From Escherichia phage VEc74: a stretch of 64,000 nucleotides of DNA. Position 1 is the first letter of the stretch. The number at the start of each line of letters is the position of its first letter. The notes beneath the pieces are model-generated. The model was given only the letters and a program-made list of their open reading frames with translations. It had not been told where the DNA came from and did not search any database. Positions 38,228-41,609 of this stretch are shown here, one piece after another. The position numbers and the translations under genes are program-made. The stretch lies in sequence record MT932213.1; one strand, given 5' to 3'.

Positions 38228-39088
38228 TTATACCGCCATCTTTCCTTTAATTGGCGGGTGAGATACATAGTTGTTAAGAACGAAATCTTTAGGTCTAAGT
38301 TTAAGAACATATTTTAATTGTTCTTTAGTAGAAAGATATCGGAATTTATAAGGTAGACCACTTATTACCAGCTCACAAAGCTCTTTAGGTTCACGCCTCA
38401 AAATTTCTTTACACTGTTCTACGTGATTCATATAGATATGAGTATTACCACCAGAAAATATCAAATCTCCTGGAATAAGATTACACATCTTAGCTACAAT
38501 ATGAACTAACGTAGCATATGATGCAATATTAAATGGAAGACCGAGAAAAACATCTACCGAACGTTGATACCACTGCAAATCCAAATAGCCATTACGCACA
38601 TTAAACTGATAGAACATATGACAAGGCGGTAATGCCATATATTTAAGTTCAGCTGGATTCCATGCTGAAACAATTTGACGCCTATCATTTGGCAGTTTTT
38701 TAATACGATCAACAACTTCTATAATTTGGTCTACACCACCAAAATCACGCCACTGTTTTCCATAAATTGGACCAAGTTCACCGCTATGATACCCTAAATC
38801 TTTTGCCTGATTTTCGTAATTTTCATCCCAAACTGTTTTGCCTTGGATTAACGAATCGTGTTGAATTAATCGTAAATCATTGACATTTGTGCTTCCCGAT
38901 AAAAACCATATTAGCTCAGCGATGCAAGCTTTCCAAGCGAGTTTCTTAGTCGTTACTGCAGGAAAACCTTTAGTTAAATCCCAGCGTAATTTAGTACCGA
39001 ACAAAGCAATTGTTCCTGTGCCTGTTCGGTCATCGGTTTCATAGCCATTTTCAAAAATGTCTTTAATTAAATCTTGGTATTGTTTCAT
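38228..39088 (-). CDS. td: Thymidylate synthase, uninterrupted (no group I intron)
   Basis: 286-aa continuous ORF, T4 Td length; active-site region LPPCHMFYQF. Confidence 0.95.
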   Translation of the reverse strand: MKQYQDLIKDIFENGYETDDRTGTGTIALFGTKLRWDLTKGFPAVTTKKLAWKACIAELIWFLSGSTNVNDLRLIQHDSLIQGKTVWDENYENQAKDLGYHSGELGPIYGKQWRDFGGVDQIIEVVDRIKKLPNDRRQIVSAWNPAELKYMALPPCHMFYQFNVRNGYLDLQWYQRSVDVFLGLPFNIASYATLVHIVAKMCNLIPGDLIFSGGNTHIYMNHVEQCKEILRREPKELCELVISGLPYKFRYLSTKEQLKYVLKLRPKDFVLNNYVSHPPIKGKMAV

Positions 39089-39133
39089 TTAGTACCTTAT
39101 ATAAATTATAATACATTTTATGAAGCTAAATAA

Positions 39134-39493
39134 TCAATACGGTTTAGCATCAAATTTTCTTTCGATTTCAGGAGTGAAATATAATTCTTTACCGCGTTTA
39201 GAAAAGCGACCAATAATATGATAATTATTCTCATCAAACGTAATATTGCCAATATCCATGGCTTTCAACCAAATATCGATATTTCTATCCAGTTTTATAT
39301 CAAAATTCCAATACGGAGAACTATTACCGAAAATACTGCAAGCGGATTCAGTGAAACAACTACTATAAATCTTGTCTTTAGGAACTACTAATTGATAGAC
39401 GCCTTTAATAAACTGAGGACCCTGCCATTTAGGTTGTTTCGCGTCTTTTTCTAATAGAATAGGGTAATAATTAAAATTCATATTTTCCGCCAC
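39134..39493 (-). CDS. Hypothetical protein inserted between frd and td (ATG start at 39481 gives 115 aa; track start at 39493 is GTG)
   Basis: ORF MNFNYYPILLEKDAKQPKWQGPQFIKGVYQLVVPKDKIYSSCFTESACSIFG...; no recognisable motif. Confidence 0.5.
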   Translation of the reverse strand: MAENMNFNYYPILLEKDAKQPKWQGPQFIKGVYQLVVPKDKIYSSCFTESACSIFGNSSPYWNFDIKLDRNIDIWLKAMDIGNITFDENNYHIIGRFSKRGKELYFTPEIERKFDAKPY

Positions 39494-39501
39494 GTGTTAT
39501 T

Positions 39502-40328
<827 letters not shown>

Positions 40329-40639: not shown

Positions 40640-40867
40640 TTATTTTTGAATTAAGCCCATATAAAATTTAGCATCTTCAGGATACATGCCATCACAATAC
40701 TCATTGGTCATAAAACTGATAAGGTCTTCAAGAGGACCTTGGACTTCAATTTGAATACTAAAGAATTGGGTATCTTTAATGTAAGCCATACTCAAAGAAG
40801 GATAACGATTGCGGATAACTTCATAAGTGTATTCAAAATCAACAATATCAATATTAACCTTAGCCAT
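40640..40867 (-). CDS. Small acidic protein, paralog of the 41336-41566 ORF
   Basis: 75-aa ORF from [26 protein letters not shown]...; RBS GAGGAAAATAAA; track ORF is longer but its start lies upstream of the promoter. Confidence 0.55.
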
Positions 40868-40896
40868 TTTATTTTCCTCATGTAGTTGATAGGGTA

Positions 40897-40926
40897 ATAG
40901 TATCACACTATTACCATGATGTAAAC
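40897..40926 (-). promoter_or_regulatory. Early promoter (-35 GTTTAC, 18-bp spacer, -10 TACTAT)
   Basis: Read on minus strand. Confidence 0.55.
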
Positions 40927-41291
40927 TACTTTTTGAAAGTTTTTCGCAAAAGTTCAATGATTTCATCTACATTGTTTTCGTCTACAATGCAGTGAATTTT
41001 TGTTACGCCAGAAACTGTGTCTTCGGCTCCATCTTCTTCAGAAGTCGGTTCTTTATACTCGCGAAAACAATGAAATTCGTCTTCACAAACGTTAAAGTAA
41101 AAATGCTTTCCATTTGCGCATTCAATGTGTTTTATTACTCTAAATCCATCAACAAAGAAAGCTTCTTTAACTTCAAACCATCCACCATTTTCTTGAATAA
41201 TTTTAACTATTGATGAATTAGAACGTGGGCGATAATTAATAAATGTATCAATAAGTCTTGGAACAAGCTCATACTTTTTGCCAATATACAT
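40926..41291 (-). CDS. Hypothetical protein
   Basis: 121-aa ORF with RBS GAGGAAAAC. Confidence 0.5.
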
Positions 41292-41335: not shown

Positions 41336-41566
41336 TTATTGTTCAATCAATCCCATGTAAAATTCTGCGTCTTCAGAATCCATACCATCACAATATTCAT
41401 TAGCCATAAAGCGGGTGAGGTCTTCAAGAGGACCTTCAATGACAATAGAAAAATTGCAATAATTGGGATCATCGTGAATACTTGTGATACTAAGTTCAGG
41501 ATAACGATTACGAATAATCTCTTCAATATATTCAAAATCAACGATGTCAATATCAACTTTAGCCAT
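41336..41566 (-). CDS. Small acidic protein, paralog of the 40640-40867 ORF
   Basis: 76-aa ORF from [26 protein letters not shown]...; RBS AGAGGAAAATAAT. Confidence 0.55.
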
Positions 41567-41609
41567 ATTATTTTCCTCTTTAATCATCAGCAGTATTGCC
41601 GATAGTTGT

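Follow-up and report, generated by a model that had tools for sequence, protein, structure and literature searches.

A conserved small gene at the frd-td junction of T4-like phages and the origin of the T4 frd/td overlap

A small gene between frd and td in phage VEc74

We analyzed a 64,000-nt stretch of DNA from Escherichia phage VEc74 (sequence record MT932213.1; this whole stretch is hereafter the window), with attention to the junction between frd, encoding dihydrofolate reductase (DHFR), and td, encoding thymidylate synthase. Both genes, and the open reading frame (ORF) that separates them, lie on the minus strand. An earlier note on this DNA had described the ORF as an extra gene inserted at a site where, in T4, the two genes overlap. 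The descriptive parts of that account hold: the frd-td interval (39089-39501, 413 bp) contains one 115-aa ORF, positions 39134-39481 encode exactly the 115 residues quoted there, frd (145109-145690) and td (end at 145112) of T4 share a 4-nt ATGA overlap (NC_000866), and comparison with the T4 junction confirms that T4 is without the ORF. The features of the window junction, in the direction of transcription, are as follows.

39502-40083, minus strand: frd (dihydrofolate reductase), 193 aa, the upstream neighbor, placed from its ORF and the annotation in T2 and relatives
39500-39507, minus strand: left copy of the 8-nt direct repeat AAATGAAA, with the frd stop codon within it
39482-39501, minus strand: 20-nt spacer from the frd stop to the ORF start, carrying a GGCGGA that weakly resembles a Shine-Dalgarno sequence
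39134-39481, minus strand: 115-aa ORF, short form of the RB32ORF229c / phrog_1928 family, with ATG at 39481 and TGA at 39136-39134
39089-39133, minus strand: 45-nt spacer between the ORF and td, invariant among the window, T2, SP1, and UFV13
39083-39090, minus strand: right copy of AAATGAAA, with the td start codon within it
38228-39088, minus strand: td (thymidylate synthase), a contiguous, intron-less gene of 286 aa, the downstream neighbor, compared with T2 and T4

The automatic ORF call reaches a GTG at 39493; we took MNFNYY as the start because it is conserved in all relatives. The 20-nt spacer is absent from NHEP29 and from an uncultured contig (L009); in both, an ATGA combines the frd stop with the ORF start. 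The ATG in the frd stop motif AAATGAAATAA (39500-39492, minus strand) opens a 2-codon mini-ORF (M-K-stop) in the window; the equivalent ATG is the td start in T4, the start of a 68-aa gene in SHFML-26, and the start of the junction ORF in NHEP29 and L009.

The junction ORF is a true coding gene, and purifying selection on it is strong. Compared with other Tequatrovirus alleles, the window ORF gives ratios of non-synonymous to synonymous divergence (dN/dS) of 0-0.06 by the Nei-Gojobori method, the underlying synonymous and non-synonymous differences numbering 10 and 0 for T6, 16 and 2 for UFV13, and 29 and 9 for NHEP29. Its score on a measure like the codon adaptation index, with nrdA, td, frd, and 32 as the reference, is 0.67, against 0.66-0.68 for td and frd and 0.46-0.48 for out-of-frame and antisense controls; its third-position GC content (GC3, 0.267) and codon usage agree with those of the neighboring genes. 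Homologues in many genera keep the reading frame down to ~26% identity, and an AlphaFold2 model of the product, built from a 45-sequence alignment, has a predicted local distance difference test score (pLDDT) of 91.9 and a predicted template modeling score of 0.84.

Distribution of the family and the origin of the T4 overlap

The ORF product is 100% identical to a protein of T2, T6, and RB14 annotated as "hypothetical protein, RB32ORF229c", and the RB32ORF229c gene, known also from RB32 and others, agrees with the window gene in position and orientation, with no difference. It also matches phrog_1928, a family of unknown function, over its full length (E 8.4e-36; residues 4-111 on profile positions 2-125 of 126). 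The window ORF is thus already known and annotated as an ordinary hypothetical protein and is not a new insertion; we found nothing in the literature searched on this gene by ORF name, protein accessions, PHROG identifier, or topic. An 801-bp junction segment has matches at 96-98% identity in 355 phage records, T2, T6, RB3/5/6, and PP01 among them. A tblastn search with the ORF protein returned 580 phage records, 362 of them at ≥90% identity, which belong to Tequatrovirus, and 218 at <60%, which belong to other genera and include phages of Klebsiella, Enterobacter, Edwardsiella, Erwinia, Salmonella, Serratia, Citrobacter, and other hosts. In six other genera, diverged copies with 26-47% identity by tblastn directly follow frd, and a longer tandem paralog often lies next to them. 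In a HMMER search of 1.84 billion representative sequences, the family made up only 41 clusters.

Wherever we inspected the locus (Jiaodavirus, Roskildevirus, Kanagawavirus, Gelderlandvirus, Winklervirus, and two uncultured contigs), a family gene lies between frd and td, in most cases directly after frd and with stop and start codons overlapping it by 1-23 nt. The window gene is thus one of an old group of at most three small genes that T4-like phages (subfamily Tevenvirinae) carry at the frd-td junction: the short form seen in the window, a longer tandem paralog, and a basic protein of 68-69 aa. In other genera, the junction genes are joined to frd and td through overlapping stop and start codons. 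The family itself splits into the short form (~100-116 aa) and the long form (~115-139 aa), which are clear paralogs (hhalign probability 99.75%, E 2.9e-27); in CHI14, EcS1, PEi26, STML-198, CC31, and others, the long form takes the second place between frd and td. Long-form proteins (EcS1/CHI14, P0035; PEi26 ORF-252) share with the short form the W, HGxY, GN, GRFxKxG, and FxP motifs and the frd-td slot, but differ from it by an insertion of ~22 residues with a PTIxEY..NP motif and by an N-terminal extension. In Roskildevirus (Cronus), a 144-aa family member sits between frd and the short form. The full set is present on the uncultured, Kanagawavirus-like contig L009, where frd, the short form, the long form, a 69-aa gene, and td all overlap. 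The third gene is located as follows.

L011:688-894 (Shigella phage SHFML-26) and L009:4670-4879: very basic protein of 68-69 aa (MSNKLKVKDVP...), coupled to frd through ATGA and to td through TAATG

The Tequatrovirus and L009 versions of this protein (68 and 69 aa, respectively) are 81% identical. Within Tequatrovirus, T2-type phages, including VEc74, keep only the short form, the long-form paralog being absent from the window; a third junction type (SHFML-26, G3F8, PYps15T) keeps only the 68-aa gene; and T4 keeps none. The exact, gap-free T4-type junction, sought with a 40-nt probe, occurs in only 32 records, comprising T4 strains, RB55/59, and a few close relatives. Outside Tequatrovirus, Mosigvirus G2285 also has frd joined directly to td.

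These data bear on whether the ORF was gained by the T2-type phages or lost by T4. Of the description of the locus as an extra, inserted ORF, the presence of the ORF stands and the insertion is not supported: ~362 records carry the gene against 32 with a T4-type junction, diverged members already follow frd and precede td in other genera, and the ORF is native in composition and resembles its flanks in synonymous divergence (dS). The earlier note would have counted its view as refuted if most T4-like phages carried the ORF at this junction and its function were known; the shared junction was found and the known function was not. The frd 3′ end and td 5′ end of T4 have the same sequences as those of the window, but the two coupling motifs that coincide in the T4 ATGA overlap, a rare state, are held apart by the ORF in the window. 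Deleting one copy of AAATGAAA together with the DNA between the copies (417 bp in total) recreates the T4 junction at 94 of 95 nt, and the single mismatch is a td polymorphism. Because of this match and the distribution of the gene, loss of the ORF in the T4 lineage is the simplest reading. The dS values of the ORF (0.18 against T6 and 0.31 against UFV13) are similar to those of frd (0.14 and 0.20) and td (0.24 and 0.38), which argues for long co-residence; the NHEP29 frd value was left out since an indel shifts its frame.

Several observations weigh against a simple history of this kind. The AAATGAAA repeats are the stop/start coupling motifs themselves and alone give no direction to the event. 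Between the window and L009, the ORF product is 63% identical, Frd 49%, and Td 78%; between L009 and PEi26, the ORF product is 43% identical but Td 91%. In NHEP29 (L013), the ORF (301-663) is 94% identical to that of the window, overlaps frd by ATGA, and stands 15 bp from td, whereas td is far more diverged than the ORF, with synonymous sites at its 5′ end saturated in comparison with the window. This pattern hints that the ORF moved between lineages by recombination. As the ORF tree is not fully congruent with the flanks, strict vertical inheritance is doubtful, and some lateral exchange of the junction set may have occurred.

Since T4 keeps none of the junction set, the gene is evidently dispensable for T4-type growth in laboratory hosts. 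We also considered whether the T4-type deletion spread with the td intron by I-TevI co-conversion, and rejected this, as the intron and the ORF coexist in RB3, T6, ECO4, and others. Whether a phage has the intron does not depend on whether it has the junction ORF: td is intron-less in the window, as in T2, and carries a group I intron with I-TevI in T4, T6, RB3, ECO4, SHFML-26, and others.

Three database entries required separate consideration. The first (P0013, 195 aa, from a 100-kb NCBI contig) joins the C-terminal 35 residues of a Klebsiella-phage member to an unrelated N-terminal part, which has a faint match to RlaP-like nucleotidyltransferases (E 0.065); it is probably a disrupted copy of the family gene. 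The homologue in Klebsiella phage ValerieMcCarty04 (L003:1801-2118) is labeled "putative homing endonuclease" in GenBank. We took a GIY-YIG, HNH, LAGLIDADG, His-Cys box, PD-(D/E)xK, or EDxHD catalytic domain as the mark of such an enzyme and rejected the identity, as the window protein and 30 members have no Pfam or NCBIfam match and the beta-barrel model is without nuclease neighbors; the label is likely a mis-annotation. Finally, an 899-aa protein with eight matched stretches (P0034) was rejected as a distant relative, its match being a spurious additive one on Big_13 Ig-like repeats.

The gap before td and other small genes nearby

The 45-nt gap between the ORF and td reads TTATTTAGCTTCATAAAATGTATTATAATTTATATAAGGTACTAA and is followed directly by the td ATG. 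It had been proposed that a TATAAT-like element here gives td a promoter of its own, and the gap holds two features of interest.

39105-39128, minus strand: promoter-like module, comprising a MotA-box-like tAGCTTCA (39128-39121), a 10-bp spacer, and a perfect TATAAT (39110-39105)
39095-39098, minus strand: td Shine-Dalgarno AAGG

Several aspects of the gap speak for this proposal. The TATAAT is present, and the gap is identical in the window, T2, SP1, and UFV13, with T6 differing by one deleted T and having its TAA stop just outside the gap. Synonymous sites beside the gap differ by 0.14-0.38 (dS), so its invariance indicates constraint. In NHEP29, the 15-bp gap is without ~30 bp of the window gap, including the GCTTCA core and TATAAT. 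Like T4 middle promoters, which depend on MotA and AsiA, the module places a GCTTCA core and a perfect TATAAT immediately before a gene, and the middle-promoter pattern is enriched in the window (22 matches against 8.3 expected).

The details fit less well. The MotA box consensus is (a/t)(a/t)(a/t)TGCTTtA, with single changes tolerated by MotA, and the box lies 12 ± 1 bp from the −10 element (PMC2988021). The MotA-like box before td, TTTAGCTTCA, departs from the consensus by one mismatch, an A for T before GCTT, and its distance from TATAAT is 10 bp; at 12 bp there is only a poor TAATTT. The three other GCTTYA...TATAAT sites in the window all have 13-bp spacers. A sigma-70 scan for −35 and −10 hexamers spaced 16-18 bp apart found TTGATT-18-TATTAT, matching at only 9 of 12 positions, and with 10 such sites in 1.5 kb against 6.0 expected the scan has little discriminating power. 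A transcript initiated ~7 nt past the −10 element would have the td Shine-Dalgarno at its very 5′ end, and the element may equally be a translation-initiation region. A scan of the region against Rfam gave only sub-threshold eukaryotic families, which we ascribe to chance. From these sequence features, we regard an independent td promoter in the gap as possible, while leaning somewhat against it.

Other small genes lie upstream of frd. One, the 81-aa RB32ORF231c (40083-40328, minus strand), is located between frd.1 and frd, its stop overlapping the frd start; it had no Pfam, NCBIfam, or PADLOC match of note and is absent from T4, which has a ~71-bp gap there. Two frd.3-like paralogs (40640-40966 and 41336-41587, both on the minus strand) flank frd.2 and share MAKV(N/D)IDIVDFEY...NEYCDGM...FYMGLI. 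The frd.3 gene is single in T2 and T4, and L009 duplicates FRD2 instead.

Predicted fold and candidate functions

In keeping with the absence of a recognizable motif remarked on in the earlier note, the ORF product has no Pfam, NCBIfam, or PADLOC match. A profile match did place it in the phage family phrog_1928, and AlphaFold2 gave a confident fold; Pfam, NCBIfam, PADLOC, and PDB sequences gave no match for the single sequence, the family profiles, or all 30 members, the PADLOC defence-system models being negative for short and long forms alike. The best hit of the two family profiles among PDB sequences, to the TagH ATPase at E 0.084, is not meaningful. Known anti-defence proteins (Acb, Tad, Gad, Ocr, Sequestin, and others) did not appear in PDB sequence and fold searches, BFVD, or the literature searched, a survey that included no dedicated anti-defence library.

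The AlphaFold2 model has strands at residues 6-12, 27-34, and 62-64, a helix at 68-76, and strands at 80-82, 86-96, and 99-104, an order (beta1-beta2-beta3-helix-beta4-beta5) that fits an oligonucleotide/oligosaccharide-binding (OB) fold. At a pLDDT of 92, fold searches with the model gave no significant match, and no PDB structural neighbor reached significance; the non-significant lists consist almost entirely of OB-fold domains that bind single-stranded DNA or RNA, with ~65 residues aligned at 3.0-3.9 Å. The ORF product resembles OB-fold domains (SSB, RPA, S1, HIN, Teb1, and the RecO N-domain) in the order of strands and helix and is mildly basic, but has no sequence similarity to them and possesses a long loop (13-26) and an extra N-terminal strand. 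A structure search of BFVD found only uncharacterized proteins of T4-like phages, which are the family itself, extending to Aeromonas phages. The window product is 13 kDa, and the isoelectric points of the family are mostly 8-9.3. Invariant or near-invariant positions are Q16, W19, G27, Y29, G91, F93, K95, G97, and F102; two of these, K95 and G97, form part of the GRFxKxG motif and are located at the beta4-beta5 hairpin.

Our tentatively preferred explanation, for which we claim rather less than even odds, is that the ORF is an old, selected junction gene for a small ligand-binding accessory protein. As modeled, the product would be a single-domain beta-barrel with an OB-like strand order that binds a ligand, most likely RNA or single-stranded DNA, through conserved polar and aromatic residues, for which Q16, W19, Y29, R92, F93, and K95 are candidates. 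Its synthesis would coincide with that of DHFR and thymidylate synthase, in the early or middle phase of infection, and the short and long paralogs may form a heterodimer where both exist. The more specific proposal, a non-essential ligand-binding and probably nucleic-acid-binding accessory protein made together with the two enzymes, we advance with correspondingly greater reserve. Some points count against such a role: the net charge is low (+1 to +5), with a few acidic members in the family; Pfam, PDB sequence, and profile searches revealed no sequence link to any nucleic-acid-binding family; several of the conserved aromatic residues may simply belong to the hydrophobic core; and in T4-like genomes, which are highly colinear, synteny says little about a functional connection to frd and td.

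The counter-defence or host-takeover role raised in the earlier note is a rival that we consider doubtful without dismissing it. Here, the small protein would inhibit a host protein or sequester a signal and be useful only on matching hosts, and an advantage limited to hosts with a matching system would explain how T4 manages without the gene. The gene is small and dispensable, 32 records have an exact T4-type junction that lacks it, and it occupies a locally variable slot that holds different small genes across Tequatrovirus lineages. Disruption of the relative P0013 by fusion or truncation, an ORF tree whose disagreement with the flanks suggests exchange between lineages, and a fold without a characterized structural relative also fit, and other small T4 ORFs have proved to be immune-signal sponges, for example Y16O/Sequestin, formerly of unknown function (bioRxiv 10.1101/2025.07.12.664507). 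Against this stand the persistence of the gene at one position across many genera at 26-47% identity and its dN/dS of 0-0.06, unusual for fast-turnover arms-race genes, together with the lack of fusion partners, of defence-related neighbors, and of any mention in the literature searched. That the short and long paralogs form a structurally new class of small beta-barrels acting as an unrecognized Tevenvirinae counter-defence or host-modulating factor would be a good deal less likely. Such a factor might, for instance, neutralize a host system that targets nucleotides or senses nucleic acids, with which T4 copes otherwise.

We think it unlikely that the protein is an adaptor or accessory subunit of the nucleotide-precursor machinery, one that contacts DHFR, thymidylate synthase, or the dNTP-synthesizing complex to tune activity, stability, or coupling and is kept at a fixed ratio to the two enzymes by translational coupling. 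The constant position between frd and td, the overlap of stop and start codons by 1-23 nt in most genera, the embedding of the set in the frd-td-nrdA operon, and strongly purifying selection are what such a subunit would predict. However, T4 and at least one Mosigvirus (G2285), in which frd is joined directly to td, manage the pathway without the gene, and in colinear genomes adjacency carries little functional information. Nor could a co-divergence signal be measured, the Spearman rho being 0.15 for the ORF against Frd and only 0.23 even for Frd against Td; across genera this test is powerless because divergence is star-like.

Very improbable, in our estimate, is recent foreign insertion, in which a T2-type ancestor would have acquired the ORF and the 45-bp gap together as a "moron" that brought its own td promoter. 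The ORF is closer to its L009 copy than the flanking Frd is (63% against 49%), most of the promoter-like module is absent from the tighter NHEP29 junction, and the segment is flanked by AAATGAAA repeats. Yet GC3 and codon usage are native, dS of the ORF equals that of the flanks in T6 and UFV13, many genera have a family member at this site, few records (32) have a T4-type junction, and the repeats are merely stop/start coupling motifs. Last, the suggestion that the ORF is spurious or decaying and functionless, to which its absence from T4 and the lack of database annotation might lend weight, is effectively refuted already by the dN/dS of 0-0.06, the frame conserved at ~26% identity, the confident fold, and the in-frame codon usage.

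Annotations should treat the ORF as the normal state of the junction and not as an unusual insertion, the reference genome T4 being the outlier, and caution is warranted when T4 serves as the yardstick for "extra" genes. The family spans many Tevenvirinae genera and combines strong selection with a confident predicted fold, yet it has no T4 gene name; this and the absence of a known function probably explain its neglect. We regard the gene as a reasonable, though not outstanding, candidate for functional study. To what is known of it, this analysis adds, modestly, a predicted fold, a tandem paralog, and a deletion model for the T4 overlap, and an origin of the frd/td overlap by microhomology deletion would be a small evolutionary footnote. 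Should the family prove to act in counter-defence, the textbook overlap of frd and td in T4 would count as the scar of a secondary deletion.
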